A stretch of 64,000 nucleotides of DNA, from contig JAGNWT010000001.1 of the NCBI GenBank assembly GCA_017985935.1, positions 32,871-96,870 on the forward strand, given 5' to 3'. Positions 5,367 through 33,991 of this stretch are shown here, one piece after another. A program made the position numbers and the translations under genes. Numbering within the stretch: the stretch's first letter is position 1; each line of letters starts with the position of its first letter. Below the pieces are notes generated by a model, which ran no database searches, was not told where the DNA came from, and saw only the letters and a list, made by a program, of their open reading frames with translations. Source of the stretch: Anaerolineales bacterium (GTDB lineage Bacteria > Chloroflexota > Anaerolineae > Anaerolineales > Villigracilaceae).

Positions 5367-5398
5367 AAAAAAGCCCCGGAAATTCCGGGGCTTTTTTC
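5367..5398. terminator. Bidirectional intrinsic terminator between gyrA and the GGDEF gene
   Basis: AAAAAAGCCCCGGAA-at-TTCCGGGGCTTTTTT between convergent genes. Confidence 0.85.
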
Positions 5399-5405
5399 TA
5401 CCTGC

Positions 5406-6182
5406 TCACATCATCGTGATCTGATTCTTGCCAAGATGCTTGGCTTTGTACAAGGCCTGGTCTGCGAACGAGATCAACCTTTCAAGTTTTTGCCCGGTCA
5501 CACCGTTGGCAACCCCAATACTGATCGTAAATTTGATAGCGCCTTTACTAGTCGGCACCTTCAACTGCCCCACTTTGATATTGAGCCGCTGTGCAATTTC
5601 CATCGCCTGTTCGATGCTAGTCTCAGATAAAAGGCAGATAAACTCATCTCCGCCATAACGCACAAAAACATCGGTGGACCTGAACACCGAACGGCAGGTC
5701 TCTGCCAAAAGTTTCAGAACATCATCGCCGGCACTGTGCCCATACCTGTCATTGATCTTTTTGAAATCATCCAGATCGATCAACAGGATGGAAGTATCTC
5801 CAGGCAGTACGGCGTCCTTATCATTTACGGACCGTATTTTATCCAGTAAATAATATCGATTAAATGCCTTTGTTAATTCGTCGTGAATGGACTTGTCATG
5901 CATTTCTTCGCGCATGGAATCCATCTCACCCAGCAGGCTGACCATTTGAAAAAGATGATAAGGCAAAAGTGTGGAGCAAAGAATTAAATTGATCGTCAGC
6001 CCGGTCAACACCTTCCCGCCCATGATCATATTCACGGGAACAATGACCAGCGTCCCCACAAAGAATGCTATCACGCAAGCGATCATAACGGTCCTTGCCA
6101 GTCCAACTTTTTTATAGAGGGCAAACAGATATCTTTGTTCTAAAAAATGAGGCGTGTAGGTCTGAGGATCAACTGTTTTCAT
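5406..6182 (-). CDS. Membrane-anchored diguanylate cyclase (GGDEF)
   Basis: N-terminal hydrophobic helices; IDLDDFKKIND-YGHSAGD; RSTD (RxxD I-site) before RYGGDEF. Start ATG 6182 (track 6215). Confidence 0.88.
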   Translation of the reverse strand: MKTVDPQTYTPHFLEQRYLFALYKKVGLARTVMIACVIAFFVGTLVIVPVNMIMGGKVLTGLTINLILCSTLLPYHLFQMVSLLGEMDSMREEMHDKSIHDELTKAFNRYYLLDKIRSVNDKDAVLPGDTSILLIDLDDFKKINDRYGHSAGDDVLKLLAETCRSVFRSTDVFVRYGGDEFICLLSETSIEQAMEIAQRLNIKVGQLKVPTSKGAIKFTISIGVANGVTGQKLERLISFADQALYKAKHLGKNQITMM

Positions 6183-8604: not shown

Positions 8605-9882
8605 CTAAGCATCCTTTGTCAGGTTTTCCAAAAATTCAATATTGTTCTTCGCGCGTTCCATGCGGGTGATGATGGCTTCGGTGGCTACAGAGTTATCCAT
8701 GCCAGCGCCCTGCGGCGGAGGTGAGGTCATCTGAATGAACATACGGCGCATCAGCCAAACGCGTTGGAGAAGATCGGGTCCGAGCAGCAGGTCTTCGCGG
8801 CGGGTGGACGAACGTTCGATATCCACAGCGGGGAAGGTGCGGCGTTCCTGCAGTTTACGCGAGAGGTGCAACTCCATATTGCCGGTACCCTTGAATTCTT
8901 CGTACACCACATCATCAAGGCGTGAGCCGGTATCAACCAGACAGGTGGCGATGATGGTCAACGAGCCGCCTTCTTCCACGTTACGAGCCGCGCCAAAGAA
9001 ACGCTTGGGCGGGTACAACGCGGAGGGATCCATACCGCCGGAGAGTGTGCGCCCAGAAGGGTTGACTGTCAGATTGTAGGCTCGGGCGAGGCGGGTGATC
9101 GAGTCCATTAAGATTACCACGTGACGACCGATCTCCACCAATCTCTTAGCACGGTCTAAGGCAAGCTCGGCTGTGCGAACATGCGAGGTGACTGGCTCAT
9201 CAAATGTGGAAGCAACCACTTCAGCATCTACGGAGCGGTCCATATCGGTCACTTCTTCGGGGCGTTCGCCGATGAGGGCAATAATTAAATGTACGTCGGG
9301 ATATTTGGTTGAGATCGAATTTGCGATCTGCTTCAAAATCGTGGTTTTGCCCGCCTTGGGAGGAGAAACGATCAATCCGCGCTGCCCTCTGCCGATCGGT
9401 GCGATCAGGTTGATCAAACGGGGTGCTAGAGTGTCGTGATCTAATTCGAGGTCAAATCTTGTGTCTGGGAAGATCGGGGTGAGGTTTTCAAAAACGATCC
9501 TGCGTGAGCCGGTCTCTGGTTCGAGCCCATTGATCGATTCAACTTTTAGAAGACCAAAGTGCCTTTCACTTTCACGCGGCGGGCGGACCTGCCCAATGAC
9601 GAGATCTCCGGCTCGAAGGTCATACTTTCTCAACTGCGCCTGCGAAACGTACACATCCTGGTCGCTGATCCGGTAATTGGTTGCCCGCAAGAACCCGATC
9701 CCTTCGCTTAAGATCTCAAGGATACCGCCGCGCAGCTCAATGCCTTCCTTTTGAGCTTCCGCCTCGCGGATCATCATGGCGAGAGACTCTTTTTTCATGC
9801 GGTTGAAATTCGGGATGTTCAGGCTCTTCGCCATGCTGCGCAGTTTCGCCAGCGGTTGGTTCTCTAGTTCTAGTATTTTCAT
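8605..9882 (-). CDS. rho: Transcription termination factor Rho
   Basis: GRGQRGLIVSPPKAGKT, ERPEEVTD, GRTLSGG, EEFKGTGNMEL. Confidence 0.97.
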   Translation of the reverse strand: MKILELENQPLAKLRSMAKSLNIPNFNRMKKESLAMMIREAEAQKEGIELRGGILEILSEGIGFLRATNYRISDQDVYVSQAQLRKYDLRAGDLVIGQVRPPRESERHFGLLKVESINGLEPETGSRRIVFENLTPIFPDTRFDLELDHDTLAPRLINLIAPIGRGQRGLIVSPPKAGKTTILKQIANSISTKYPDVHLIIALIGERPEEVTDMDRSVDAEVVASTFDEPVTSHVRTAELALDRAKRLVEIGRHVVILMDSITRLARAYNLTVNPSGRTLSGGMDPSALYPPKRFFGAARNVEEGGSLTIIATCLVDTGSRLDDVVYEEFKGTGNMELHLSRKLQERRTFPAVDIERSSTRREDLLLGPDLLQRVWLMRRMFIQMTSPPPQGAGMDNSVATEAIITRMERAKNNIEFLENLTKDA

Positions 9883-10176
9883 GTTTTTGTTTTCTCTTGG
9901 TGGGATTGAATTATGAATGCAAAAAGACCAGCATCCCCCTGCAGGGCTGGCAAATTTCCTAGGATGTTGTTAATAAATCAGGGATTTGAGTCAAGGTTAT
10001 CGTTACAGTTCGAGACGCAACACAATTGTGTCGGATGTTTGACAAGGATCGATTGTCAAAGTCTGGGGAGATGGCGAGATTATAGCACTTCCATGCATGC
10101 CATGCAAGTTGATTATTATTTGATTTCATCGTGGAGTATACGATTTTGTAAATTCAACATTTGATTTCGGCGGCTT

Positions 10177-10211
10177 AAAAAACAGAGCCGGAAACCCCGG
10201 CTCTGTTTTTT
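10177..10211 (-). terminator. Intrinsic terminator ending the sqr transcript
   Basis: AAAAAACAGAGCCGG-aaacc-CCGGCTCTGTTTTTT. Confidence 0.8.
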
Positions 10212-10224
10212 GGGTCGACATTAT

Positions 10225-10353
10225 CTAAGACCGTTTGCTTTGATACACAGCGATCAATATCTTGACGTTCAAGACGATGAAGCGCCAGAGTTGATAAAGT
10301 TTAAAGTTCATCCAGAACTTTTCGGCTTTTGAGAATTCTTGTGAGGTATTCAT
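10225..10353 (-). CDS. 42-aa small protein immediately downstream of sqr
   Basis: Below the track threshold; hand-translated MNTSQEFSKAEKFWMNFKLYQLWRFIVLNVKILIAVYQSKRS. GGAG RBS overlaps the sqr TAG stop; ends just before the terminator. Confidence 0.7.
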   Translation of the reverse strand: MNTSQEFSKAEKFWMNFKLYQLWRFIVLNVKILIAVYQSKRS

Positions 10354-10363
10354 TTCGGTTCTC

Positions 10364-11803
10364 CTATTCGGGGATGATGGTCCAGCCGGGGCGGGCTTTG
10401 AACTTCCAGATGAAGGTGTGGTGAAGCATGAACTTCATCCATGCGCCGCTGACGCCCATTTCGAGATGAGAGGTGAACAGGTCGCGCCCAAACTCATTGG
10501 GGAATTTCTTGCGATCTGGAACCACGGGATGCATAACGATCACGACCGCATTTCCATCCCAGAGAGAATCTCCCATGGAAGCGATGCAGGCGGCGACCAT
10601 GTCGGTCATGGGTTCGCGATGGGTCATCTCCCCCTTTTCGATCAAGTCCACGATGTTGAGAGCAACGACCCGCCCGATCACGCCGCTGACCATGCCTGTG
10701 CGTGGAGGCGCTGGGGCAATAGCCAGGTTGTTCTTGTTCGTGAACGGCTTGGAGATCGGCCCGGGAGGAGCGAAGGCAATGCCCGCGGCGAACATGTTCT
10801 TGTAGGTAGGATTCTGATATTGCGCCGGCCATGCTTCGGGGGTCTGGGCAAGCTCGGGGTAAGGCAGACCGTATTTTCCATCGACCAGGAGAAATCCCGC
10901 TGGGTTGGTCAATTTGGAGGTGATGTCTTCGCCGTTCTTGTCGATATATTTGAAGGGCTGTCCTTTGAATTGCGGGATGAGCATGGAGAAGTCGAAATCG
11001 GTAGTGCCTTCTTCGCCTTCGTAGTTCTGCCAGTGGATCTTGCCTTCTTCGATCTTGGTGACACCGGTCTGCACTTGATAGCGAATGCCATGATCGTTGA
11101 AGACGGAGGTGAGGAATTCCTCGCTCTTTATCACATGCCCATTGCGTTTGATCTGCACGCCGTTAACGCCGAAGTCTCCCATGGCGGGCTCGTTCGAAAG
11201 CCAGAGAATATCGGCTTTATCGCGCAGCCCTTTTTTGACGAGGTCTTTGTGGACATTGACAATGTATTCAAATGCCGCGCCCTGACAGGTTGCGCCGGGG
11301 TGACCTGTGCCAATGACGATCTTGACCTTTTCGCCTTTGCCCATGCGGTCACACAAGGCTAGGTAGGCATCACGGGTTTTGATGGCATGCGGAAGCGAGC
11401 AGATGGAGTGTGTGAAGCCGTTCTCGGGTCCGAGACCAGGGGTGCCGGCAAAGTTGAGGAGCGGCCCGGGCGCAACGACAAGGTAATCGTAATCAAGGCG
11501 CACTTCCTTGTCGGTGCCGACTTCATTCCCAAGCACATATTGGTCGCCTGCATCCGGGTGGATCTCTTTGGCGGCGGCGTGAACGAATTTGACGTTCATC
11601 TTGTCGTACACAGGCTTGAGCTTGAAGACGGTCTTTTCAGGTTTCATGTGACCGACCCCCACCCACACCCACGAGGGGACGTACCCGAACACATCGCGAT
11701 TGCTGATGACGGTGACCTCGTGTTTCCTGCCGATCTTGCTGCCGAGATACAGAGCCGCAGTATGCCCTGCGAAGCCCGCCCCAATTACAACAACTTTAGC
11801 CAT
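10364..11803 (-). CDS. sqr: Sulfide:quinone oxidoreductase, SqrF (type VI)-like flavoprotein
   Basis: Rossmann VVIGAGFAG; HSICSLPHA; GTGHPGATCQGAAFEY; APPRTGM; AACIASMG; amphipathic C-terminus; GGAGG RBS. Confidence 0.82.
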   Translation of the reverse strand: MAKVVVIGAGFAGHTAALYLGSKIGRKHEVTVISNRDVFGYVPSWVWVGVGHMKPEKTVFKLKPVYDKMNVKFVHAAAKEIHPDAGDQYVLGNEVGTDKEVRLDYDYLVVAPGPLLNFAGTPGLGPENGFTHSICSLPHAIKTRDAYLALCDRMGKGEKVKIVIGTGHPGATCQGAAFEYIVNVHKDLVKKGLRDKADILWLSNEPAMGDFGVNGVQIKRNGHVIKSEEFLTSVFNDHGIRYQVQTGVTKIEEGKIHWQNYEGEEGTTDFDFSMLIPQFKGQPFKYIDKNGEDITSKLTNPAGFLLVDGKYGLPYPELAQTPEAWPAQYQNPTYKNMFAAGIAFAPPGPISKPFTNKNNLAIAPAPPRTGMVSGVIGRVVALNIVDLIEKGEMTHREPMTDMVAACIASMGDSLWDGNAVVIVMHPVVPDRKKFPNEFGRDLFTSHLEMGVSGAWMKFMLHHTFIWKFKARPGWTIIPE

Positions 11804-23622: not shown

Positions 23623-24678
23623 TCACTCCGCTGTGTACGAGCACACGTTCTGAATGATCTGTTGGCGCAGAGCGACCATTTCAGGGAAGTCATAAAAGAA
23701 GCGGATCTTCTGGTCAATGACGCTATCGCCTTCGGGTTTTGGCTCCAGCACAAAGTAAGTGAAGGACTCAGCCATATCCTCATGGATGTTCGAGGCGGCG
23801 TAGTCACGCACAAATTCATTTTCGTGCCGGCTGTAAAATTCATCCACGAGAGCGAAATATTCATCATCCGTATCGGCACGTACTTTCTCAACGGTATCGC
23901 GCCATTCCTCGAAGATGTCGACCCAGAAGGCTTGGTAAAAATGATTGATGTACGAATCAGGTGTCGAGCATCCGTTGGGGTCCAAATACTGTTTACAAAA
24001 AGAAGGGTTTTGCCCCCAGCCAAAATAAAAGTCGGAAGGAGGGATCTGGTCTGTGTTCAGGGTGAGCAAATGTCCAAATTCATGGACGAGAGTGTAGGTC
24101 AGGTAAACAGGTTCCTGCGCGTCGATGATATCCACCGCCAACTGCCAGCTTGAGCGGTCTGCCTCGCCGCGCGGACTGACCCACGCCAGAACATTATCCG
24201 CGTTGTCGGTGAAGATGTAATACTCGCCGATCCATTTCAGTTCATCGGGCGGAAGAAGCGCAGAGGCGTAATCCCAAACCATTTGCTGGGTTTCTAGATC
24301 CTCTTGAAAAGATTTGAATTCCTGCGGCGCGTAAAGCATCAAAGGTTCGCCCAGTTCGCCGTCCTTCACTTTGTAAGTCACCAGATTCAAGTCTGCCTCG
24401 GTGCCGGCATAATCGCCGCCAAGGGATTCGATCTGCCCGATCGAGATCGCATCCTGGATCCTGACGAGGCAGGCGTTCAGGCAGGAATCATCCACGCAAG
24501 TGATGGGATGCGGCGTTGGGCGCGGCGTGGATGTGACCTGCGTCTCTGTTTCAACGACGAGAGTTGCCTCGCTTACAAGCGGCATTTCTGTGGCTGAAGG
24601 AGGCTCGGTCGGCATCAAAGTCTGGCAGGAGATGGAGGCAAGAATCAAAACAAAAATAGCGGCGAGGATTCGTTTCAT
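23623..24678 (-). CDS. Lipoprotein with a zinc metallopeptidase motif
   Basis: Lipobox-like LASISC, Thr/Pro linker, HEFGH and distal EDMAESF. Confidence 0.75.
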   Translation of the reverse strand: MKRILAAIFVLILASISCQTLMPTEPPSATEMPLVSEATLVVETETQVTSTPRPTPHPITCVDDSCLNACLVRIQDAISIGQIESLGGDYAGTEADLNLVTYKVKDGELGEPLMLYAPQEFKSFQEDLETQQMVWDYASALLPPDELKWIGEYYIFTDNADNVLAWVSPRGEADRSSWQLAVDIIDAQEPVYLTYTLVHEFGHLLTLNTDQIPPSDFYFGWGQNPSFCKQYLDPNGCSTPDSYINHFYQAFWVDIFEEWRDTVEKVRADTDDEYFALVDEFYSRHENEFVRDYAASNIHEDMAESFTYFVLEPKPEGDSVIDQKIRFFYDFPEMVALRQQIIQNVCSYTAE

Positions 24679-24750: not shown

Positions 24751-25878
24751 TTATTTGCGGATCGTTTCCCAATCGTCGCGCAGGAAGTTACCGAGAACTT
24801 TATCTGCTTCACCCTGGGCAGGGAGCACATCTCCGTCAGGCTCCACGTACATCCACGCCTTACCGGCACCCGAGGGGATTTCATCGTCAATGGTTTCAAA
24901 AGCAACGGGATTTGCAGAAGAGTACGGCACGGGCAAATCCCAGCGGATGGTGAGTTGGAGAGTGCTGGCGGTATCCTGCAGTTCGATCAGTTCATCGGTC
25001 AGGTTATGGTCGGCGGCGCTGAGAGAAATATTTTTCACGCCCACTTCTGCCAGCTTTTGCAAAATCTCCTTTGCCTGCGCGGCGTTCTCGTTGTTGAGCG
25101 TCAGATGCACGGTGAGGAAAATATCCTGCGGGACGATGGTGGCAATGGCATTCCATGCCTGCGGGTTGGCAGGCTCAAGGATGAGCATGACATGGTCCAA
25201 CCCGGTTTGCAGGAGCATCTCAAGATAGTCCTTGTCGGCAAGTTTCAAACCGTCGGTGATCAAGCCGCAGACCTGCCCGTTCTTTTCAGCGTGGTCGATC
25301 AACATGACCAGGTCTTCACGCATGGTCGGCTCGCCGCCCGTGAAGATGATATGCGGGATCCCCGCAGACCATGCCTTGTCCATGATGATGCACCACTCGT
25401 CGGTGGAGAGTTCACGGTCCACACGTTTGACGGGAGCATGGTCAGCGTTGGAGTTTTTGGGCAGGCGGTAGGTGATGGCACAGTCGAGCCGCAGAGTGGA
25501 ATCTGCCGAGTGGGGCTGAGCCCGCTCAAAGTCCAGAAAGGATGCGGGGTCCAGGTCTGGAGTGGAGATCAGCGTGTGGATCTGGTCGGTGAAGTTGGCA
25601 AAATCCGCCAGCGCGGTCTTCCGATCCACGCGATAGCGTTTGGAGATCTGTTTGGCGGCTTCTTCGGGGTCGGTGCCTTTGATGAAGTGATAGGCGTATT
25701 CGGCGGCGGTGGGATTCAATTGCATGACGGTGGACGCGTTGAGAATGAGCAAGCCGGACCCGTCAGCGTTCAGACGCAGGTGCAGGCGATAGGGCTTATC
25801 ATCTTCAGTGGATTGCATGTGATGCGTGCCCACAGGAAGCGGCGCGGATTTGGTGAACATTTGAGTCAGGAAGTTCAT
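24751..25878 (-). CDS. Radical SAM-fold paralog lacking all cluster-ligating cysteines, with an RRE/PqqD-like N-terminus
   Basis: Collinear with the 27320-28681 protein. FTGGEP is kept, but AITYRCNNDCAHC becomes AITYRLPKNSNADH and the SPASM Cys are replaced (GAGKAWMYVEPDGDVLPAQ). GGAG RBS; start 25878 (track 25992). Confidence 0.85.
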   Translation of the reverse strand: MNFLTQMFTKSAPLPVGTHHMQSTEDDKPYRLHLRLNADGSGLLILNASTVMQLNPTAAEYAYHFIKGTDPEEAAKQISKRYRVDRKTALADFANFTDQIHTLISTPDLDPASFLDFERAQPHSADSTLRLDCAITYRLPKNSNADHAPVKRVDRELSTDEWCIIMDKAWSAGIPHIIFTGGEPTMREDLVMLIDHAEKNGQVCGLITDGLKLADKDYLEMLLQTGLDHVMLILEPANPQAWNAIATIVPQDIFLTVHLTLNNENAAQAKEILQKLAEVGVKNISLSAADHNLTDELIELQDTASTLQLTIRWDLPVPYSSANPVAFETIDDEIPSGAGKAWMYVEPDGDVLPAQGEADKVLGNFLRDDWETIRK

Positions 25879-25886
25879 AGGGTCTC

Positions 25887-26894
25887 CTATTTGCTGAGTA
25901 TCGCAAGGTCTTGAACAAAGAATAGGATGATATATCCGATGAGAAGCACCACCCAGCCGATCAGTTCGGCTCTTTCCATGATGCCCTCCCACGAAAGGGA
26001 GAAATTATCTTTGACGGTCTGGACGATGCTCTCCAGATTATCTAGTTTGGCTTTTACATTTTCCTTCCAGTCCTTGAGGTAGAACTCGCTCTGGATGGCT
26101 TCGTAAAGTTTCGCGGTGTACCAATCGCCGATGAGCAGCAGGTTCTGTTCGGCGCGTTCAAAGTCCAGCATGACCTCAAGCTTGTGTTCGGCGATCTGGC
26201 GGATGACGCCGCGTGTGGCGCGTGGTCTGCGTTTGTTCTTGAAAAAAGTTTCGCTGATCTTATCCAGCATGGTGTCGATGGATTGATCGAGCATGCGGTA
26301 GCGCAACAACTGGTAATTGCCGATCTTAAGCAGGGCAATGTCGGATTGATAATCGTCGTTGGGCGCGATGATGACCGCGCCTTCCCAATCGACAAGTGTG
26401 AGTTCCTCGGCGGAGTAGCGGGTGCGCGAGATGAGAATGTCGTCGATCTCGCTTTTGTCGAACACTTCACGCTGCGAACGGATGAACTTGGTGAGGGCAA
26501 GCGCGTTCTTCTCGATCCATTTATCGGGCGTGGGTTTTGCCTCCTGCACCAGCAGAACGGTGTACTGTTCGAACAGTCCGTTCTGGCGGTATTGGGTCGG
26601 GATGAATTTGCTCTCCAGCGCAGCCTGGATCTTTGCCCGCTCCTGCAGAACCGATGCGGCGAATGGATTCTTTAACTCGAAGTGACATTCCACCAACTGC
26701 ACACGACCATCATAACGCTGACGCATGACCAGCACCGCATGCCCTTCAATGAGGACGGTCTCTTCGCCAAGCGGGACAATGTCGATATCAATAGGCTGGA
26801 AGTATGGCGCATCCTTTAGTCCCTTAAATGGGTCAGGGACGGGGGCTGTGCCGTCGTCAGTGTCGGGGAAGGCGATGAGGTAGCAGATTTCCAT
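25887..26894 (-). CDS. Hypothetical membrane protein, RMD1/DUF155-like (tentative)
   Basis: VDWEGA..NYQLLRYRMLD..IGDWYTAKLY..FYLKDWKENVKAKL pattern plus C-terminal TM helix; start 26894 (track 27056 overlaps the PAS gene). Confidence 0.65.
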   Translation of the reverse strand: MEICYLIAFPDTDDGTAPVPDPFKGLKDAPYFQPIDIDIVPLGEETVLIEGHAVLVMRQRYDGRVQLVECHFELKNPFAASVLQERAKIQAALESKFIPTQYRQNGLFEQYTVLLVQEAKPTPDKWIEKNALALTKFIRSQREVFDKSEIDDILISRTRYSAEELTLVDWEGAVIIAPNDDYQSDIALLKIGNYQLLRYRMLDQSIDTMLDKISETFFKNKRRPRATRGVIRQIAEHKLEVMLDFERAEQNLLLIGDWYTAKLYEAIQSEFYLKDWKENVKAKLDNLESIVQTVKDNFSLSWEGIMERAELIGWVVLLIGYIILFFVQDLAILSK

Positions 26895-26931: not shown

Positions 26932-27273
26932 TCAGGCACGGATAAAGTGCGGAAGTTCAAGCGGGATCTCCAATGAGAGTTCCACAAAGCCCGCGTAGCT
27001 GCCGTCTTTGTACCACGGCGATTGATAAATGAGCTTTTTGACTCCGTTCTTTTCAATAGTGTACACGTTCTTCTGGTGCGCGGCGAGCAATCTTTCGACC
27101 TTGTTACGGGCAGGGTCAGGGTGACAGTCTAACATGTTCGAGCCAACCAGTTTATAGCCACCGTCCTTTTCAAAGGTCCTGGCGGCTTTGTCGTTCATTT
27201 CAAGGATGATGCCTTCCTCGTCACAGACGGTGATGGCGGCGGGAAATTCTTTGATCCATTCGTGGTCAGACAT
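26932..27273 (-). CDS. Stand-alone PAS domain protein
   Basis: ITVCDEEGIILEMN..A, G-x-N-x-x-DCHP PAS pattern; 113 aa; GGAG RBS. Confidence 0.8.
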   Translation of the reverse strand: MSDHEWIKEFPAAITVCDEEGIILEMNDKAARTFEKDGGYKLVGSNMLDCHPDPARNKVERLLAAHQKNVYTIEKNGVKKLIYQSPWYKDGSYAGFVELSLEIPLELPHFIRA

Positions 27274-27319: not shown

Positions 27320-28681
27320 TTAACCAGCGACCTGTAAAACTTCCAAGTGCAACTGATGTCCTTCAAACTTAAGCGGGCATCCCCCGCCGCACTCGGCAAC
27401 AAGGGAACAGGTCTCGCATTTGAAGGGCAGGTTCTGGCGTTCGCGCAACTGAACAGAGAGCTTGTGATTCCAGATCGAGTCCCATGAGTCGGTAAGGAAG
27501 TTGCCTAGCGGCTGGTAATAGGATTGGCAGGGAAGCACATTGCCATTGGATTCAATGCACATGCTGTAAAGCGCGGCAGTGCAGCCTTTCACTCCCAGGT
27601 TGCTCGCTGTGGGGTCGAACTCACAGTATTGGGTCGGCGTGTACCAGATGAGCCTTTGTCCACGGGCGGCGGTCTTTTGGGTGGCGACATCCAACAGGGG
27701 CTGCAACTCGCTCTCGCGCAGCCCCGTGCCAACGGTCAGACCTTGACCGGAAAGAATAAGGGCGTTGAGCCCAATGGTGGGGACTCCGTTATCGGCGAGA
27801 AAATCCAGCGTGGCGGGAATCGTATGCGCGTTCGTTCTCAGCATGGTGGTATTGGTCATCACGTAGAGTTTGGTCGCGAGGGCATTATTCAGCCCCGTTA
27901 TCGTCTGCTTGAACGCACCCTTTGCGCGCATCATTTCGTCGTGGATCTCAGGCACGCAAGATTCGACCGTGATCTGAACATGGTCAAGCCCGGCATCAAC
28001 AAGTTGTTGGACGTAATCCATATCCATCAGACGGCGGGCGTTCGTGTTCAGACCTGTGATCTGCCCGTTGCGTTCTGCATGCCGGATCAACTCTGGAAGA
28101 TCGTTTCGCAAGGTCGCTTCGCCGCCCGTGAAAACAATGTGCGGCACGCCCAAATCCCACAGCTTATCGAGAGTGGACTTCCATTGGTCGGTGCTGAGTT
28201 CGGGAAAGTTCCGCTCGCGGGCGTTATAGCAATGAGCACAGTCGTTGTTACAGCGATATGTGATGGCAAGGTCCATGCGGTAAGGCGCGGATGGTCTCGC
28301 ACTGAAAGGCATCACCGTATCAAGATCAAGTTCGTGGACGGGACATGCGCCATCGGGGCGCAGCAATTCAGAAAGTTGAACCTGAAAATCGGACAAGTCC
28401 GTGAACGCCTGGGTTTTGCTCACACGATAATTTCTGCGGATGGCGCTCAGCGCCTGATCTTCGCTTACTTTTTCCAATGTGAGATATGCCATGAACGCCG
28501 CGGTCGGATTCAGGTGCATGACACTGCTGGCATTGACGATGAGCGTGCCCGTGCCATCGGGGTCAATGCGGAGATGAATACGTGATTTCTCGGACCCATC
28601 TTCGCGCTGGTAATGATACAAGCCCGAGCCGGGGTTTTCGATCGAGGATTTACGATTAAATAGATTACTAAATAAACTCAT
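27320..28681 (-). CDS. Radical SAM/SPASM domain protein with an N-terminal RRE (PqqD-like) domain
   Basis: CNNDCAHC, FTGGEA, SPASM CTAALYSMC..GNVLPC and CETCSLVAECGGGCP; N-terminal LNPTAA...YRVSKTQAFTDL PqqD-like segment. Confidence 0.93.
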   Translation of the reverse strand: MSLFSNLFNRKSSIENPGSGLYHYQREDGSEKSRIHLRIDPDGTGTLIVNASSVMHLNPTAAFMAYLTLEKVSEDQALSAIRRNYRVSKTQAFTDLSDFQVQLSELLRPDGACPVHELDLDTVMPFSARPSAPYRMDLAITYRCNNDCAHCYNARERNFPELSTDQWKSTLDKLWDLGVPHIVFTGGEATLRNDLPELIRHAERNGQITGLNTNARRLMDMDYVQQLVDAGLDHVQITVESCVPEIHDEMMRAKGAFKQTITGLNNALATKLYVMTNTTMLRTNAHTIPATLDFLADNGVPTIGLNALILSGQGLTVGTGLRESELQPLLDVATQKTAARGQRLIWYTPTQYCEFDPTASNLGVKGCTAALYSMCIESNGNVLPCQSYYQPLGNFLTDSWDSIWNHKLSVQLRERQNLPFKCETCSLVAECGGGCPLKFEGHQLHLEVLQVAG

Positions 28682-28723
28682 GCTGACCTTTTCTCTGATC
28701 AATAAAGATTGAACCTGTCAAAT

Positions 28724-30382
28724 TTATCTTCCGCCGCCGGCACAGGCGCAGGCGCAGCCCGCACAGGCACAAGCGCAGGCACATGAACGTCCACCGCCGC
28801 CACCGCTCCGTCCGCTGGAAGTGGGTTTGGGCGGAGGGTTCGTGGCGCCTGTGATCTTCTCGGTGAAGGTGTTGACATTGCCCACGACCTTCGAGGAGAA
28901 GGTCTGCACGCCCGTCACCACTTGCGCGGCAAAGTCTGCGCCGGGCAGGGCTGTGCGGCTCGAGGGCTGACCCATGCTCGGGGTCGGGAATCCGCTCGAA
29001 GCCTGGGTGGGACGCGGGGCATAGGTTGGGTTATATCTCCCCCACCAATGCGGAAGGAAGATCGGTCCGTTGAAGACGCGCCGCGTGCGATCGTCGTAAT
29101 CTTTGTCGAGCATGGTCCATTCGAGGGCTTCGTCAAATTTCTGGCTCTTGACCTCTGGCGTGTCGGCGGCTTCGATCTGCTGCCAAGCTTTTTCCATGAT
29201 GGACTTGTAATACGCGACGGTTTCCTTGCGGCTGAATCCGCGCATCTTTTCTGAAACACTCTTGACCAACGCGATCATCATCGCCTGCAAGTCACCCTGA
29301 CGGGTCTTTTTATCTGCGGTCTTGAAAGCCTTGAGAAAATCCTTTTCGTACTGATGCAAACCATCGGGGGTGGGGTTGGCAACATCCAACTCGAGCGGGT
29401 CGCGGGTCTTGACCGATGCCGCCTCTTTCTTAATGGCGCCAAAGAGGATCATGGTCAACACCTTGTCGAGCGGCTGCTCCATGAGGATGGCAGATTCCAC
29501 AGCGGTCAATCCGCGCTTGATGCCGTGACCTTCAATGGCGACCTTGGGCGGCATGTACTGCATCTTGCGGCGTTGATTGCCGATCGCTGTCAATGTGGGA
29601 GCGCCAATGAACATGAAGGCAAAGAAACCGCAGCATATCACGTTGAAAATGGTGTCGGTGCTGATCAGCGGCTCGGAAGCAGGGACGGTAATGCTCTCCG
29701 CAGGGACGTAGGTCTTTGGGAAGGATGCGCCGAAAAGATAATATTCCGACGCGTTGGCCGAAGGTGAATACCAGGTATAGGTCACCCGGTTCTCTGAGTC
29801 ATAGACCGATTGCGGCTCAGATGGAAACCCCGAAGGCGCCGCGTGCCAACGCGGTTCCTGCTCGTTCATATTCGGCGGCAGATGAAAGGTGAGCGTGAAA
29901 TCAGTATTCCCTGTTACATACTGCGAGCCGAAATAAGTGGGAGCAAATGCGGCGCTGGCGTAGGCTTCGTCGTTATCGTCTGGATACAGCACGCCGGTGA
30001 TCCGGCCGACATAAACATGCACGGTTGCGGTTCCGCCGGCAGGGATGGATTGACTTCCAAGCACAACAGCAAAACCCGATCCACCTCCCTGATAATCGCC
30101 GGTCGAGACCGATACAGGCACCCCGTCCACATCGGCTTGGATCGTGCCGGTATCAAAGTTGTAGTTAGGCATGCCCACATCTACAAAGTCGATCTCATGC
30201 GAGTCGGGTTGGTTGGTGAAGACCCACGTGTAATCCAAACTTTGAGAGCCGTCTGAATTCCAATAGACGTGCACCACCTGTTTGTTCACTTGAAAGTAAT
30301 ATGGAAGGTCCTGCGCAGATACATTCGCTGCGCCCCCCATCGTAAGCAAAATCACCAGTGCGAATAAAAATATTTTTTTCAT
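28724..30382 (-). CDS. DUF2207-like single-pass membrane protein with a C-terminal Cys-Ala repeat tail
   Basis: Signal peptide, beta-rich exported domain, TM helix (NVICCGFFAFMFIGAPTL), cytoplasmic domain, Gly linker, tail SCACACACAGCACACAGGGR; GGAGG RBS. Confidence 0.85.
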   Translation of the reverse strand: MKKIFLFALVILLTMGGAANVSAQDLPYYFQVNKQVVHVYWNSDGSQSLDYTWVFTNQPDSHEIDFVDVGMPNYNFDTGTIQADVDGVPVSVSTGDYQGGGSGFAVVLGSQSIPAGGTATVHVYVGRITGVLYPDDNDEAYASAAFAPTYFGSQYVTGNTDFTLTFHLPPNMNEQEPRWHAAPSGFPSEPQSVYDSENRVTYTWYSPSANASEYYLFGASFPKTYVPAESITVPASEPLISTDTIFNVICCGFFAFMFIGAPTLTAIGNQRRKMQYMPPKVAIEGHGIKRGLTAVESAILMEQPLDKVLTMILFGAIKKEAASVKTRDPLELDVANPTPDGLHQYEKDFLKAFKTADKKTRQGDLQAMMIALVKSVSEKMRGFSRKETVAYYKSIMEKAWQQIEAADTPEVKSQKFDEALEWTMLDKDYDDRTRRVFNGPIFLPHWWGRYNPTYAPRPTQASSGFPTPSMGQPSSRTALPGADFAAQVVTGVQTFSSKVVGNVNTFTEKITGATNPPPKPTSSGRSGGGGGRSCACACACAGCACACAGGGR

Positions 30383-30419: not shown

Positions 30420-30824
30420 CTACCACTTCGGTTCTTCTGTCAGTTGATAGACCGTGCCGCAGAAGGGACATTCCACCGTAGGCGCGCCTGCGATCATCTT
30501 TACATTATCGGCCTTCAATGAGCCGCCGCAGGATCTGCACTTCATCTGCTCAACCTTGGTCTGGGCAGGCAGATCGATCTTATAGGTGATGTTATCTCCG
30601 CCGCCGCCAGCCGCCTTTTGCCTGCTCGCAAAAACGATCAGCCCAATGCCTCCTCCAAGGAAAGCCACGCCAACGCAGGAGAAAGCAATGCCAAAGGTCA
30701 GCCACGACCCGCTCCCCTGGGCGGAGGTGGAACCGATGACACTTAATACGCCATAGCCAAAGAGGCAAACTCCGATCAACAACAAAATCCCCGCTCCGAT
30801 ATACATTAATGTCTTGTTGCCCAT
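30420..30824 (-). CDS. Two-TM membrane protein with a C-terminal zinc ribbon
   Basis: Two hydrophobic helices, then CRSCGG...CPFCG; AAGGAG RBS before ATG 30824. Confidence 0.8.
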   Translation of the reverse strand: MGNKTLMYIGAGILLLIGVCLFGYGVLSVIGSTSAQGSGSWLTFGIAFSCVGVAFLGGGIGLIVFASRQKAAGGGGDNITYKIDLPAQTKVEQMKCRSCGGSLKADNVKMIAGAPTVECPFCGTVYQLTEEPKW

Positions 30825-30947: not shown

Positions 30948-32129
30948 CTAAACTCTTTGCGGTAGCCGTACACGCAGGGCTGTAAAAAAGTTTATGATGG
31001 CTATTCCCATTCCTAACAGAAAAACATATTGAAAACCAAACGTGTTCCAGATAACCCCGCCCACCAGTGCAGCGGTGATCGAGAACACATGGTCAATTGT
31101 GACAGCAGCGGTCAACGCAGGCTGGATGTGATCGGGCTGTAACGCGATCTTTTTCATGTACGTGGCTCGCGCCATGCTGACCGAAAAAATCATCTGATCG
31201 ATCAGGAAGCAGACACACACCACAAGAAAAGCAACTTCTTCAGAGAAGATAAATTTTGCAAATCCATAACCTATACAAACAAAGACCAGAACGACAGCCT
31301 CTGAAGCCAGCACAACGCGTTCACCAAATTTATCGATCGCCCACCCAAGCAAAGGCTGAAATAGGATTCCGATCACCCCGCCAATGGTAAACAAGGTCGC
31401 CATGATCTGGGTTGGCTGCCCCAACACACTGACCAACACCCAGGGGGCAAAAGTAATGAAAAGCTGTTTGCGGGCACCCGAAAGTACATTCAAGGTGTAA
31501 TACAAACGATATTCCGGATGCAGTTGTAAAAATCCGCGCCGCTCAACGACCGGTTCTGGGGTCATCATGAATAATAAAACAGCAGCAATGACCAGTAAAA
31601 CAGCGGAAATGGCAAATGTGTGTTGAAAGGAAAATCCAAGATATTTGAATCCCAGCACCACACTGAAACTGCCTAAAATGGCCGCAAGATTGCGGATGGA
31701 ATTGATCTGCCCAAGGCGGCGCCCATCCTGCCCTTCTCGCGCCAGTTCCATGCCAATGGTCGAAGCGAGCGGCATAAAAAGGTGATTGCCCATGCTATAC
31801 ACAAACAACCAAAGCAACATCACAGAATAACCGGAAGAAGCAAAACCGATCAGTACTGCGCCTAATGCGCCAAGGATCATTGCCACCACACTCAGCCTGC
31901 GCGAACAAAGAAATCCCATCGCCGCTGAAACAAATACCACCAGAAAGCCGGGCAATTCGCGCGGAAATTCCAAAAAGGAACGCTGGAATCCCGTCAATGC
32001 AAATTTTTCGTTGAGAAAATTGTTGAAAGTAGAATCGAACATGCTGAATGCCATGCCAAGAGCCAGCGCGGCAGAGGCAAAAAGGATAAGTTCACGCGAA
32101 GACCGCCTGAAACGAGATATAAGATTCAT
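30948..32129 (-). CDS. MFS transporter
   Basis: About 12 TM helices; IDKFGER motif A-like loop. Confidence 0.85.
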   Translation of the reverse strand: MNLISRFRRSSRELILFASAALALGMAFSMFDSTFNNFLNEKFALTGFQRSFLEFPRELPGFLVVFVSAAMGFLCSRRLSVVAMILGALGAVLIGFASSGYSVMLLWLFVYSMGNHLFMPLASTIGMELAREGQDGRRLGQINSIRNLAAILGSFSVVLGFKYLGFSFQHTFAISAVLLVIAAVLLFMMTPEPVVERRGFLQLHPEYRLYYTLNVLSGARKQLFITFAPWVLVSVLGQPTQIMATLFTIGGVIGILFQPLLGWAIDKFGERVVLASEAVVLVFVCIGYGFAKFIFSEEVAFLVVCVCFLIDQMIFSVSMARATYMKKIALQPDHIQPALTAAVTIDHVFSITAALVGGVIWNTFGFQYVFLLGMGIAIINFFTALRVRLPQRV

Positions 32130-32338: not shown

Positions 32339-33991
32339 ATGACAATCAACGACCAATACAAAAAATGGAAAGAAACCACTCTCAAAAAATCTTTGGAAAA
32401 ATTCAAGGAGCGGAAGGAACGCTTCGAGTTTTCTTCGGGGATCGAAGTGCCGCGCCTCGCAACTCCGCCCGAGCCTGATTCGGTCTACGAAGAGAAGTTA
32501 GGCTACCCGGGAGAGTATCCCTACACCCGCGGAGTCCAGCCAACGATGTATCGTTCGCGCTTCTGGACGATGCGCCAGTATGCGGGCTTTTCGACGGCGG
32601 AAGAGTCGAACAAGCGTTACCGTTATTTGCTGGGACAAGGTCAAACGGGGCTATCGGTTGCGTTCGACCTCCCAACTCAAATTGGGTATGATGCGGACGA
32701 TCCCATCGCACAGGGAGAGGTCGGTAAAGTGGGCGTGTCCATTTCGTCGATCAAAGACATGGAGCAATTATTCGATCAGATTCCATTAGATAAAGTTTCT
32801 ACATCCATGACCATCAACGCACCGGCGGGAGTTTTGCTGGCGATGTATATCGCGGTTGCCAAACGCCAGGGCGCGGACATGCACCAACTGCGCGGCACGA
32901 TCCAGAATGACATCCTCAAAGAATATGTGGCGCGTGGAACGTATATCTTCCCCCCTGCCCCGTCGATGCGACTCATCACGGACATCTTCCAGTTCTGCGC
33001 CAGAGAAGTGCCATATTGGAACACGATCTCGATCTCGGGCTATCACATCCGTGAAGCTGGTTCGACCGCCGTGCAGGAAGTGGCGTTCACCCTCGCGAAC
33101 GGAATAGCTTACGTGGAAGCCGCGCTCAAAGCCGGACTGAACGTGGACGATTTCGCGGGTCAGCTTTCGTTCTTCTTCAACGCGCACAATAACCTGCTCG
33201 AAGAAGTTGCCAAATTCCGCGCGGCGAGACGGATGTGGGCACGCATCATGCGTGAACGCTTCAAAGCACAGAAGCCGTCTTCATGGCAGTTGCGCTTCCA
33301 CACGCAAACCGCTGGTTCGACCCTCACCGCACAACAGCCGGAAAATAACGTCGTGCGTGTTACGTTACAAGCTCTTTCCGCCGTCCTCGGCGGGACTCAG
33401 TCTCTGCACACCAATAGCATGGACGAAGCCCTCTGGCTGCCCACCGAAAAATCGGTGCGGGTTGCCTTGCGAACTCAACAGATCATCGCCTACGAATCCG
33501 GAGTCGCAGATTCGATCGATCCGCTGGCGGGTTCGTATCTCATTGAACATCTGACCGATGAAATCGAAAAAGGCGCGCTGGACTATATCTCCAAGATCGA
33601 TGAAATGGGCGGAGCCTTGCAATCCATCGAACGCGGATACATGCAGAACGAAATTCAGAATGCGGCATATTCGGCACAGCAGGAGATCGAGCACAAAGAA
33701 CAGATCGTGGTGGGCGTCAATCAATTCCATGTGGACGAAGCCCTGACACTGGAACGCTTGAAGGTGGATCCATCGATTGAGTTGGGACAGCGTGAGAAAC
33801 TGAAGAAGTTGAGAGAGGCTAGAAATCAGGAACGAGTTAATGAGTTATTAGGGCAGTTGATGAATGCCGCGAAAGGCACCGACAACCTGATGCCGCTCTT
33901 CATTGAGTGCGCTGAAAATGACATCACCCTCGGCGAGATCTGCAATACGCTCAGAGGTGTTTGGGGCGAGTACGTGGCGGAGGGATTTTAG
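32339..33991 (+). CDS. Methylmalonyl-CoA mutase family, catalytic (large) subunit, split type
   Basis: [37 protein letters not shown]; no DxHxxG B12-binding domain. Confidence 0.93.

Follow-up and report, generated by a model that had tools for sequence, protein, structure and literature searches.

A conserved Cys-Ala tail on an Anaerolineales membrane protein as a candidate in-cis substrate of the adjacent radical SAM/SPASM enzyme

Introduction

A membrane protein encoded in an Anaerolineales genome ends in an alternating Cys-Ala tail that is nearly unchanged across phyla, and its gene is followed by that of a radical SAM/SPASM enzyme. We propose, with about even confidence, that the tail is the in-cis substrate of this enzyme and that it most likely receives several thioether cross-links. 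The parts of this proposal differ in strength: action of the enzyme on the tail in any form is somewhat probable, and thioether formation as the chemistry falls slightly short of an even prospect. The case for modification draws on genomic association and on analogy with characterised systems.

To our knowledge, peptide-recognising radical SAM/SPASM enzymes are known almost only for small secreted natural products, and we know of very few with whole-protein substrates (QhpD, and CrpC in 2026). Literature searches on the motif, on DUF2207 with radical SAM, on Anaerolineae radical SAM/SPASM, and on RRE with membrane tails found no paper, and a compendium paper on RRE-rSAM enzymes mentions neither Chloroflexi nor membrane-protein substrates. 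With no paper and no curated family found for the tail-enzyme pair, the system appears undescribed.

Results

An invariant tail at the C-terminus

The tail gene lies in the window, the whole 64,000-nt stretch of DNA analysed here (Table 1). Its minus-strand ORF, 28724-30382, reads ...GGGGGRSCACACACAGCACACAGGGR* at the C-terminal end; the last 20 codons make up the motif, and the protein end SSGRSGGGGGRSCACACACAGCACACAGGGR is followed by TAA. Seven Cys alternate with Ala in two blocks, (CA)4 and (CA)3, with a single Gly between them and GGGR at the close. This is the array that a first-pass annotation had placed at 28727-28786, and it is confirmed there on the minus strand. The tail is composed of S, C, A, G and R only, five Cys-X-Cys units can be read within 14 of its residues, and trypsin would free it as one peptide, SCACACACAGCACACAGGGR, with a computed M of 1707.554, or 2106.704 after iodoacetamide at seven alkylatable thiols. 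Among all ORFs of at least 100 aa in the 3.8-Mb genome, no other run of at least three C[A/G/S] units was found.

Table 1. Features of the tail gene and its neighbourhood (window coordinates)
Feature	Position	Strand	Remarks
Gene of the 552-aa tail-bearing type-I membrane protein	28724..30382	minus	AF2 mean pLDDT 88
Signal peptide, residues 1-24 (MKKIFLFALVILLTMGGAANVSAQ)	30311..30382	minus	hydrophobic 1-24; model helix 2-16
Extracytoplasmic beta-sandwich domain, residues 30-222	29717..30295	minus	pLDDT about 97
Single TM helix, residues 242-274, positive-inside flank (NQRRKMQYMPPK)	29561..29659	minus	model and hydrophobicity
Predicted cytoplasmic alpha/beta domain, residues 294-450	29033..29503	minus	half-model pLDDT 85.6, pTM 0.79
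Leader-like element FTEKITGATNPPP, residues 503-518	28829..28876	minus	may dock the enzyme's putative RRE
Variable Ser/Gly/Arg linker, residues 519-532	28787..28828	minus	entropy 1.49 bits; length varies
C-terminal tail S-(CA)4-G-(CA)3-GGGR	28727..28786	minus	residues 533-552; TAA at 28724-28726
Small membrane protein, two TM segments, cytoplasmic CxxC...CxxC zinc ribbon	30420..30824	minus	just upstream of the tail gene
Putative RRE(PqqD)-radical SAM-SPASM enzyme, 453 aa	27320..28681	minus	CNNDCAHC and CX2CX5CX3C motifs
Stand-alone PAS-domain protein, 113 aa, optional member	26932..27273	minus	weak PAS matches
Protein of about 335 aa, C-terminal TM segment; optional, genus-level	25887..26894	minus	orthologs L019, L020, L022
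Pseudo-radical-SAM paralog	24751..25878	minus	PqqD/RRE and TIM-barrel core; lacks CX3CX2C and SPASM Cys
HExxH lipoprotein	23623..24678	minus	weak HExxH family match; cassette membership doubtful

In the window, the tail codons run TGT GCC TGC GCT TGT GCC TGT GCG GGC TGC GCC TGC GCC TGT GCC GGC GGC GGA AGA. Over 20 distinct ortholog tails, 2 Cys, 4 Ala, 4 Gly and 6 Arg codons are used and the amino acids stay constant; synonymous sites are saturated among orthologs with the tail residues unchanged. The single within-tail strain variant is synonymous as well (28781 A>G, TGT to TGC). Constant residues with varied synonymous codons mean that the tail is under protein-level purifying selection and is not a product of slippage. 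The first-pass annotation had seen in its varied codons a motif kept at the protein level, and the codon usage of the ortholog tails agrees.

The tail is invariant in about 118 of the 120 listed database homologs (homolog identity 63-99%) and is also kept in a homolog of 26% identity and in a short paralog. In an alignment of 75 sequences, 13 of the 20 invariant columns fall within the tail. Column entropy is 0.07 bits in the tail versus 1.5-2.6 bits elsewhere in the protein. The exact motif occurs in at least 120 species genomes, and all 122 listed copies stand directly before the stop codon. Tail-bearing systems are present in Chloroflexota, Acidobacteriota, Planctomycetota, Fermentibacterota, Zixibacteria, Clostridia and Asgard archaea, and the 19-residue core, the best conserved part of the protein, is nearly unchanged from sludge bacteria and wastewater Chloroflexota to the Asgard archaea, natural variants having 6 to 8 Cys. 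Lack of conservation among orthologs would have counted against the first-pass annotation; the motif is in fact conserved well beyond them. Among the carriers is a cultured organism, Ornatilinea apprima P3M-1 (locus L066).

A motif-centred protein search returned 4,848 matches (clusters at 90% identity). The best 120 of these are 303-593 aa long, lack Pfam domains and are called "hypothetical" wherever the source names them; a second scaffold bearing the tail was not found among them. Every carrier that could be judged from its ORF belongs to one dedicated protein family, contrary to the earlier idea of a cassette grafted onto a common scaffold.

Architecture and family of the carrier

The tail protein has only two hydrophobic segments, residues 1-24 and about 243-268. 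The 20 residues before the TM helix contain one K or R, versus six in the 23 residues after its hydrophobic core, an asymmetry in support of N-out, C-in topology, which would place the tail on the cytoplasmic side. Signal peptide, single TM helix and charge bias concur on this prediction, in line with the first-pass annotation, and the Pro/Ser/Gly linker that it had described before the tail is indeed there (TNPPPKPTSSGRSGGGGGR). Upstream of the linker, F506, T514, N515, P516 and P518 of the leader-like element are at least 90% conserved in 75 sequences, and the element is recognisable in Acidobacteriota, Fermentibacterota and Asgard copies. With its conserved upstream element, variable linker and invariant Cys-rich end, the region resembles a RiPP core in sequence. 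Just two Cys lie outside the tail, both inside the TM helix, and the tail itself is disordered in AF2 models (pLDDT below 50).

A Foldseek search with the whole protein found relatives for the ectodomain only, namely ribophorin-I/OST1 and, in M1 aminopeptidases, the N-domain (E 2e-8 to 1e-6); what they share is a generic beta-sandwich, which says little on function. For the model of the cytoplasmic half, no solved structural relative was found (best PDB Foldseek E 1.7), and a fold assignment for this domain was dropped despite the confident model.

The carrier had been called DUF2207-like, a description that fails every HMM test. Neither the whole tail protein nor either half matches Pfam DUF2207 (PF09972 N-domain, PF20990 C-domain) at E<=10, and a PF09972 search of the whole genome returned nothing, with the controls (E. 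coli and two methanogens) matching. DUF2207_C is faintly present in the cytoplasmic domain of 3 of 75 homologs (best E 0.02). A cassette-less relative encodes a genuine DUF2207 protein (L143:613-2718; PF09972 2.7e-20, PF20990 2.1e-37), which ends in a plain Gly/Ser tail. Aligned with it by hhalign, the tail-protein family profile gave 389 collinear columns at E 2e-4 with a marginal probability of only 46%. Membership in DUF2207 was rejected on the empty Pfam and genome-wide searches, and this marginal likeness is what is left of it. Membership in TIGR04222 (NCBIfam, cut-off 43 bits) was also rejected, every match being under threshold: the window protein has no match, and those in 8 of 75 homologs are below the cut-off (best E 7e-6; 17.5 and 18.5 bits in two scored individually) and map just past the TM helix, in the cytoplasmic domain. 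The tail protein shares with DUF2207 and TIGR04222 proteins a signal peptide, a beta-sandwich ectodomain, a TM helix, a cytoplasmic domain and a Gly-rich low-complexity end; unlike them, it has a single TM helix, an invariant Cys-Ala end and an rSAM partner. We know of no tie between DUF2207 and an rSAM enzyme.

The adjacent radical SAM/SPASM enzyme

The enzyme gene begins 42 nt past the stop codon of the tail gene, on the same strand. Its product matches Radical_SAM at E 1.7e-25, with CNNDCAHC as the CX3CX2C motif, and C144, C148 and C151 are invariant in 80 adjacent enzymes. SPASM (PF13186) scores 35 bits in the window enzyme against a cut-off of 21.5 and is present in all 80 orthologs. Seven SPASM-region Cys are invariant (C353, C367, C385, C422, C425, C431 and C435) and C375 is kept in at least 90%; given these eight, an open iron site for a substrate thiolate is not readable from sequence. 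An extra near-invariant Cys, C113, lies outside the three cluster motifs. Radical_SAM and SPASM occur together in 80/80 adjacent enzymes, and PqqD is detected in 64 of them at E<=0.01 (best 4e-9), leaving 16 without it at that threshold; the window enzyme's PqqD score, 21.9 bits, is just below the Pfam cut-off of 23.4.

A sequence comparison with solved structures placed SkfB, a sactionine synthase, first (E 1.8e-20). No NCBIfam equivalog cut-off is reached among SkfB, StsB, AlbA, PqqE, MftC, AhbD, NirJ, ACGX-system rSAM, GeoRSP and ScmE, and the shortfall is wide. The best score is 118 bits, for AhbD (cut-off 500), with 116/381 for PqqE, 87/300 for SkfB, 65/400 for ACGX and 66/850 for AlbA; with 87.8 bits where the StsB model asks for 625, the enzyme is not a member of the StsB family. 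The top of its NCBIfam list is shared by tetrapyrrole enzymes (AhbD, NirJ), PqqE and sactisynthases alike. TIGR04463, the family assigned to CrpC (PMC13692751), is not among the listed NCBIfam matches (best 25 of 62; 16 at E<=1e-20).

Linkage, co-occurrence and the wider cassette

Adjacency was defined as a same-strand ORF with CX3CX2C starting at most 700 nt downstream, and 107 loci had enough sequence to be tested. The enzyme adjoins the tail gene in 92 of them; in the exceptions it is encoded elsewhere in the genome in 9 of 9 tested (44-73% identity). With only three enzyme-like genes in the whole 3.8-Mb genome, adjacency by chance has a probability of about 0.1%. In a set of 41 relatives, tail gene and enzyme occur together in 25 and are both absent from 16, with no discordant case, and divergence of one protein tracks that of the other (Spearman 0.82-0.85). 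This co-occurrence shows functional coupling, but not catalysis on the tail. Transcripts that run from the tail gene into the enzyme gene are seen as RNA contigs in three independent metatranscriptome studies. The first-pass annotation had put the tail forward as a candidate modification substrate, and the gene context, a putative RRE-radical SAM-SPASM enzyme close downstream with perfect co-occurrence, strongly supports it. The adjacent radical SAM partner was not cited in that annotation's finding. Its further suggestions, that the alternation puts all thiols on one face and suits serial crosslinks or polynuclear metal binding, are hypotheses.

Gaps inside the cassette are 8-72 nt. Homologs of the zinc-ribbon gene are found at most bacterial loci, and none was found at the Asgard loci. 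The PAS protein has orthologs in L022 (86%) and L015 (50%) and an N-terminal fragment in L012, and the protein of about 335 aa had no family match in profile searches. The pseudo-radical-SAM paralog is 34% identical to the enzyme and scores 27 bits for PqqD, above the cut-off; its orthologs are all Cys-less, yet 50-75% identical to the window copy. The HExxH lipoprotein has a counterpart in the nearest relative only (L022, 39% identity). A search for a separate small Cys-rich precursor ORF yielded, as its only conserved candidates, reverse- or alternative-frame shadows inside the rSAM genes, and the core cassette has no conserved protease or exporter.

Discussion

The arrangement suggests how a tail could be modified in place. 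The type-I carrier would hold it free in the cytoplasm on a flexible Pro/Gly linker, and a cytoplasmic tail is within reach of an oxygen-sensitive Fe-S enzyme. The putative PqqD-like RRE of the enzyme, that of the Cys-less paralog, or both may dock on FTxxxTxxTNPxP, 12-25 residues before the tail, after which the free C-terminal end would thread into the active site. Several bridges from Cys sulfur to carbon, of the sactionine or ranthionine type, could then form, the acceptors being Ala or Gly of the opposite half, to give a stapled hairpin around the central Gly. When the four natural tail variants are folded on the middle Gly, Cys faces Ala or Gly in 7/7, 6/6, 8/8 and 6/7 cases, a register that follows from any two alternating blocks with an odd spacer and is suggestive only. 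Against the thioether reading, the tail lacks the Asp, Glu and Gln acceptors of known protein-substrate ranthionine systems.

Other readings keep the enzyme as partner and change what happens at the tail. A serious rival, though in our judgement an unlikely one, is that the tail stays unmodified as a thiolate-rich metal or Fe-S site resembling metallothionein, the enzyme being a functional partner that the tail may dock to the membrane or regulate, or with which it may exchange clusters or electrons. Metallothioneins have Cys-X-Cys as their canonical motif, and the invariance of the seven tail Cys is equally expected of a thiolate array left unmodified. SPASM enzymes carry several Fe-S clusters of their own, metal binding is suspected in the related CrpA system (PMC13692751), and co-occurrence shows coupling without proof of catalysis on the tail. 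Simple chelation, however, needs neither the Ala nor the GGGR, which are as invariant as the Cys, and 6-8 Cys among natural variants fit a fixed cluster stoichiometry poorly; moreover, the enzyme putatively, and a dedicated dead paralog too, keeps an RRE, a peptide-substrate-binding domain, and the enzyme is present in every tail-bearing genome tested. Quite improbable in turn is modification by other radical chemistry, be it epimerisation at alternate residues, a reaction that turns Cys into formylglycine or a dehydro residue, or C-C crosslinking. The strict two-residue periodicity would suit an every-second-residue epimerase, and the polytheonamide, YydF and epipeptide systems reportedly have an alternating L/D backbone. 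SPASM-type rSAM epimerases do exist (EpeE, PMC13012085), the near-invariant C113 could serve as H-atom donor, and the family stands among diverse SPASM enzymes (PqqE, AhbD, MftC) with no equivalog of its own. Nearly all characterised RRE-SPASM enzymes on Cys-rich cores nevertheless form thioethers (PMC10288494, PMC13692751), the nearest solved structure, SkfB, is a sactisynthase, and the anSME motif C/S-x-P/A-x-R is unmatched in register.

That the real substrate is a separate small peptide, with the tail protein an accessory for immunity, export or sensing, seems very improbable. Classical RiPP maturases do use short precursors and annotation often misses small genes, but here the narrow intergenic gaps, the frame-shadow nature of the small Cys-rich ORFs and the lack of a conserved protease or exporter in the core cassette all speak against it, as does a tail that looks exactly like a RiPP core. 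An origin as a functionless by-product of slippage, or as an assembly artefact, is scarcely credible: the tail DNA has a weak, imperfect 6- and 21-nt periodicity (71-84% matches, Tandem Repeats Finder), but synonymous codons differ within and between genomes around a constant peptide, the sole strain variant within the tail is silent, and the motif recurs across many assemblies as well as RNA contigs. We regard this origin as refuted.

QhpC and QhpD, which belong to quinohemoprotein amine dehydrogenase, and CrpA and CrpC share with the present pair an rSAM (SPASM) gene next to a whole-protein substrate, here a candidate one. CrpC (PMC13692751) and QhpD (PMC7876137) form thioethers on whole proteins. 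CrpA/CrpC come from Methanococcus voltae, where CrpB, a related extra cluster protein, may be a chaperone (PMC13692751); it parallels the dead paralog. Acceptors in CrpA and QhpC are Asp, Glu or Gln, with C-X-X-Q/D motifs (PMC13692751). Unlike these soluble substrates, the carrier here is an integral membrane protein whose (CA)n array, free of acidic or amide residues, forms the very end of the chain and hardly varies between phyla.

Among peptide systems, StsB of Streptomyces sparsogenes StsA/StsB/StsC (related: BlaA/BlaB) staples Cys2/4/6 to Gly15/13/11 in a hairpin ladder (PMC10288494). StsA/StsB and the present pair have in common a radical SAM/SPASM enzyme, RRE-assisted there and putatively so here, and Cys at every second position, here in two alternating blocks around one Gly and with a Gly-rich close. 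StsA, a small free peptide, has three Cys and an N-terminal leader, and the RRE of its system is a discrete protein; the candidate core here has 6-8 Cys in alternation with Ala and ends a membrane protein of 552 aa. SkfB, AlbA, CteB and PapB have the order predicted for the enzyme here, a PqqD-like RRE, a CX3CX2C radical SAM core and a C-terminal auxiliary-cluster domain; they act on small peptides that are secreted, and genes for a protease and an exporter lie close to theirs, neither of which is conserved here, and the candidate substrate is not a short leader peptide that is cleaved and exported. Metallothioneins resemble the tail in dense Cys-X-Cys within a short intrinsically disordered segment, but they are small and soluble, with variable X and no dedicated rSAM, whereas here X is always Ala and the segment ends a membrane protein.

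Returning to the tail as enzyme substrate, a wider and more tentative claim is that of an undescribed, phylum-spanning PTM, in which the enzyme, helped by a catalytically dead paralog that retains just its peptide-binding module, might convert the tail of a receptor-like membrane protein into a new protein-bound structure. If so, the product would be a dense thioether ladder, possibly of the lanthionine type (S-C-beta to Ala), or an alternating D/L segment, and the modified tail would serve at the cytoplasmic face of the membrane, whether as an inbuilt cofactor, as a metal site or as a rigid module for signalling. Radical SAM/SPASM chemistry would thereby reach integral membrane proteins, at a tail on their cytoplasmic side. 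A modified tail would represent a new, widespread protein modification, offer a simple repetitive substrate with which to study how such enzymes choose donors and acceptors, and give a functional handle on a family of more than 4,800 clusters at 90% identity that is annotated only as hypothetical.

The Cys-Ala tail is conserved as a peptide

The Cys-Ala array that the first-pass annotation placed at 28727-28786 lies on the minus strand, where it forms the final 20 codons of a 552-aa ORF (the tail protein), ending ...TNPPPKPTSSGRSGGGGGRSCACACACAGCACACAGGGR then TAA. Its codons are indeed mixed (TGT/TGC and GCC/GCT/GCG), and Tandem Repeats Finder detects merely weak and imperfect periodicity there. 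No other ORF of at least 100 aa in the entire 3.8-Mb genome contains three or more consecutive Cys-(Ala/Gly/Ser) units, and this array is the only one in its own ORF. The tail protein has just two further cysteines, both within its transmembrane (TM) helix.

A protein database search with the tail protein returned more than 4,351 homologs, and about 118 of the best 120 (63-99% identity) terminate in exactly CACACACAGCACACAGGGR or in this sequence plus one CA unit; the Ser/Gly/Arg linker directly upstream varies freely among the same 120. A homolog of 26% identity still has the tail, with its blocks arranged 3+4, not 4+3, and the tail is kept also in a short paralog. In an alignment of 75 sequences (29-78% identity), the tail accounts for 13 of the 20 invariant columns and has a mean column entropy of 0.07 bits versus 1.5-2.6 bits in other regions. 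Across 20 distinct ortholog tails the amino acids are constant while both Cys, four Ala, four Gly and six Arg codons are used, Arg being drawn from AGR and CGN boxes alike. Such full synonymous use combined with fixed residues and low entropy shows that the peptide is under strong purifying selection and that the array is no DNA repeat, as the earlier description of a protein-level motif had proposed; for an origin of the repeat by slippage, this leaves practically no probability.

Structure, topology and affinity of the tail protein

An AF2 model based on the 75-sequence alignment is confident (mean pLDDT 88), and its ectodomain is similar to the ribophorin-I/OST1 luminal domain and the M1 aminopeptidase N-domain. 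Modeled separately (pLDDT 85.6, pTM 0.79), the cytoplasmic half has no significant match in the PDB. Two hydrophobic segments, no more, are present, and K+R residues read off the sequence number 1 before the TM helix and 6 in the 23 residues past its hydrophobic core. These features agree with the first-pass topology: the tail is predicted to be cytoplasmic and accessible to an Fe-S enzyme that lacks a signal peptide. In addition, an element 12-25 residues upstream of the tail, Phe506...Thr514-Asn515-Pro516-x-Pro518, is conserved in at least 90% of copies and still discernible in Asgard ones; it may be a leader-like docking site for a RiPP recognition element (RRE).

The scaffold had been called DUF2207-like. 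Neither the Pfam nor the NCBIfam library recognises the tail protein, and PF09972 finds nothing in the source genome while positive controls matched. DUF2207_C is faint in 3 of 75 homologs, TIGR04222 stays below threshold in 8 of 75, and hhalign yields a collinear match, at E 2e-4 and 46% probability, with a genuine DUF2207 protein from a cassette-less relative. Family membership is thus not upheld, and the library misses together with the faint signals point at most to a distant DUF2207-like relative. The contrast drawn between a plain Gly-rich and a Cys-Ala tail was apt, as that genuine DUF2207 protein ends in a plain Gly/Ser tail. Two cassette-less relatives, at loci L143 (G028:C81, 613-2718, +) and L144 (G026:C159), encode proteins of 702 and 643 aa with sub-threshold TIGR04222 matches and plain, Cys-free tails rich in Gly/Ser; the longer of the two, from L143, is a confirmed DUF2207 member. 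This pattern is consistent with a wider group of membrane proteins that have low-complexity tails, from which the Cys-Ala family may have branched off as a specialised form.

A radical SAM enzyme gene accompanies the tail gene

The neighbouring genes did not figure in this finding of the first-pass annotation. The cassette genes are spaced 8-72 nt apart, and the enzyme gene starts 42 nt past the tail gene's stop codon. The four-gene core (Zn ribbon, tail protein, enzyme, dead paralog) is found again in relatives that belong to other families of the order.

Features of the cassette, its neighbours and the tail protein
Feature	Position	Strand	Remark
550-aa ORF	32339-33991	+	Upstream of MFS transporter; presumably resembles methylmalonyl-CoA mutase large subunit
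MFS transporter	30948-32129	-	Adjoins cassette in close relatives only
Small membrane protein with Zn ribbon	30420-30824	-	Beside tail gene
Tail protein, 552 aa	28724-30382	-	
Enzyme, 453 aa	27320-28681	-	PqqD-like RRE, radical SAM core (CNNDCAHC), SPASM
Small PAS protein		-	After enzyme gene
Protein without assigned family, ~335 aa		-	Between PAS protein and dead paralog
Dead paralog	24751-25878	-	34% identical to enzyme
Signal peptide	residues 1-24		Tail protein, AF2 model
Beta-sandwich	residues 30-222		Tail protein, AF2 model
Single long TM helix	residues 242-274		Tail protein, AF2 model
Cytoplasmic alpha/beta domain	residues 294-450		Tail protein, AF2 model
Helical hairpin	residues 481-514		Tail protein, AF2 model
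Tail, disordered	residues 526-552		Tail protein, AF2 model

Each of the 80 adjacent enzymes has a Radical_SAM and a SPASM match, and 64 have a PqqD match at E<=0.01; the window enzyme scores 21.9 bits for PqqD, just below the Pfam cut-off of 23.4. Invariant cysteines are C144/C148/C151, C353, C367, C385, C422, C425, C431 and C435, with C375 and C113 retained in at least 90%. The near-invariant C113 belongs to a PDGACP motif located after the RRE and ahead of the radical SAM core, outside all three cluster motifs; were the reaction an epimerisation, this residue could donate the H atom. The enzyme approaches none of the NCBIfam equivalogs (top score 118 bits, cut-off 500); among solved structures, the sactionine synthase SkfB is nearest to it by sequence (E 1.8e-20), with PqqE, BlsE and SuiB next.

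Among the 107 listed tails followed by 1 kb or more of sequence, a same-strand CX3CX2C ORF starts within 700 nt in 92; several of the others have the dead paralog in that place, and all nine exception genomes tested encode an ortholog-grade enzyme (44-73% identity) elsewhere. Across 41 relatives, both genes occur in the identical 25 genomes and neither in the identical 16. Because the source genome has just three genes resembling the enzyme, we estimate chance adjacency at about 0.1%. The two proteins also co-diverge (Spearman 0.82-0.85), which is weak evidence since vertically inherited gene pairs in general show some co-divergence.

The dead paralog keeps its PqqD domain (27 bits, above cut-off) and has lost CX3CX2C and all SPASM cysteines. 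Because it is Cys-less in every genome and its orthologs are nevertheless 50-75% identical to the window copy, it is a conserved pseudoenzyme, not a decaying gene. By analogy with StsC, a discrete RRE, and CrpB, it is likely a chaperone or RRE-providing partner.

Other arrangements occur. At L016 (G030:C11), the Cys-less paralog takes the place of the active enzyme after the tail gene (9401-11407, -). The active enzyme lies about 4 kb off (~4222-5529, +) beside a 283-aa cytoplasmic-domain paralog that has no tail and ends ...TTFYG; the paralog copy in this genome contains one in-frame TAG. At L004 (G016:C71), a second, short tail-bearing paralog (~889-1344, -; at least 214 aa) separates the main tail gene from the enzyme gene and comprises the cytoplasmic domain, an FTKTITKATNP element and GGGGCACACACAGCACACAGGGR, so one enzyme may serve two tails.

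Distribution, variants and expression

A degenerate-codon pattern for CACACAGCACACAGGG, scanned against one genome per prokaryotic species, matched at least 120 loci. Among the matches listed, the majority are Anaerolineae/Chloroflexota; Acidobacteriota, Aminicenantes, Planctomycetota, Zixibacteria, Coatesbacteria, Fermentibacterota (Sabulitectum, Hyd24-12), Clostridia, Syntrophothermus and three Asgard lineages (Hod-, Heimdall- and Promethearchaeota) also appear, with one cultured isolate, Ornatilinea apprima P3M-1. Arg and then a stop codon follow 122 of the 122 listed copies, whose block lengths are 4+3 (95), 3+3 (15) and 5+3 (12). A protein search scored on the tail region matched 4,848 clusters, the best 120 of which are 303-593 aa long, lack Pfam domains and are called 'hypothetical protein' wherever named. 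Rare natural variants, SCACGRACAGCACACAGGGR (GR in place of one CA unit) and ...CACACAGCGR (GCGR where GGGR is usual), occur at P0057 and at L015:1107-2795 (-) and could act as natural mutants for structure-function study. Tail-bearing ORFs of just 34-52 aa in long-read MAGs (L057, L061, L083) are probably assembly frameshift errors, not true small genes; tblastn shows a full-length homolog at the same locus.

Many studies of activated sludge and wastewater have yielded metagenomes in which the locus recurs. In three independent metatranscriptome studies, contigs cover the cassette and cross the tail gene-enzyme gene junction (28521-28783, 28609-29138 and 28494-29000), these being strandless assemblies in which DNA carry-over is possible. 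Their sole variant within the tail is synonymous (28781 A>G, TGT to TGC). The strain of metatranscriptome run X28 has two changes, T>C at 28718 and loss of 1 nt at 28723, in the 42-nt spacer past the stop codon, so the tail coding sequence is intact.

A candidate substrate for radical SAM chemistry

By analogy, the locus resembles a RiPP precursor reversed and fused onto a membrane protein: a recognition element, a variable linker and an invariant Cys-rich core at the free end would be served by a dedicated RRE-rSAM-SPASM enzyme. Among precedents, the best are StsB, a hairpin-stapling enzyme that joins Cys2/4/6 to Gly15/13/11 (PMC10288494), and CrpC (PMC13692751) and QhpD (PMC7876137), which make thioethers on whole proteins. 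Folded as a hairpin about the middle Gly, four natural tail variants have Cys facing Ala/Gly at 7/7, 6/6, 8/8 and 6/7 positions and opposite another Cys at three at most, a register common to any two alternating blocks with an odd spacer. Because nearly all Cys face Ala/Gly, a multiply thioether-stapled hairpin would be geometrically natural.

On balance we favor covalent modification of the tail by the enzyme, and we hold thioethers specifically as a tentative reading, with somewhat under an even chance. It is unlikely that the tail instead works together with the enzyme as an unmodified metal or Fe-S thiolate site, and slightly more doubtful that other radical chemistry, such as epimerisation of every second residue, takes place. 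A hidden small precursor as the enzyme's true substrate is highly improbable, as the cassette offers no space for one between its genes and holds no independently conserved small Cys-rich ORF.

No paper with the motif or the tail-enzyme pairing was found in our literature search, and none of the curated families names either protein. The preferred reading, modification of the tail by the enzyme, is directly testable. While rSAM/SPASM enzymes that act on Cys-rich ribosomal substrates are already known as a type of system, the new elements are a membrane-protein C-terminal tail as the proposed substrate type with an invariant (CA)n core, a pseudoenzyme partner and a spread from Bacteria to Asgard archaea.
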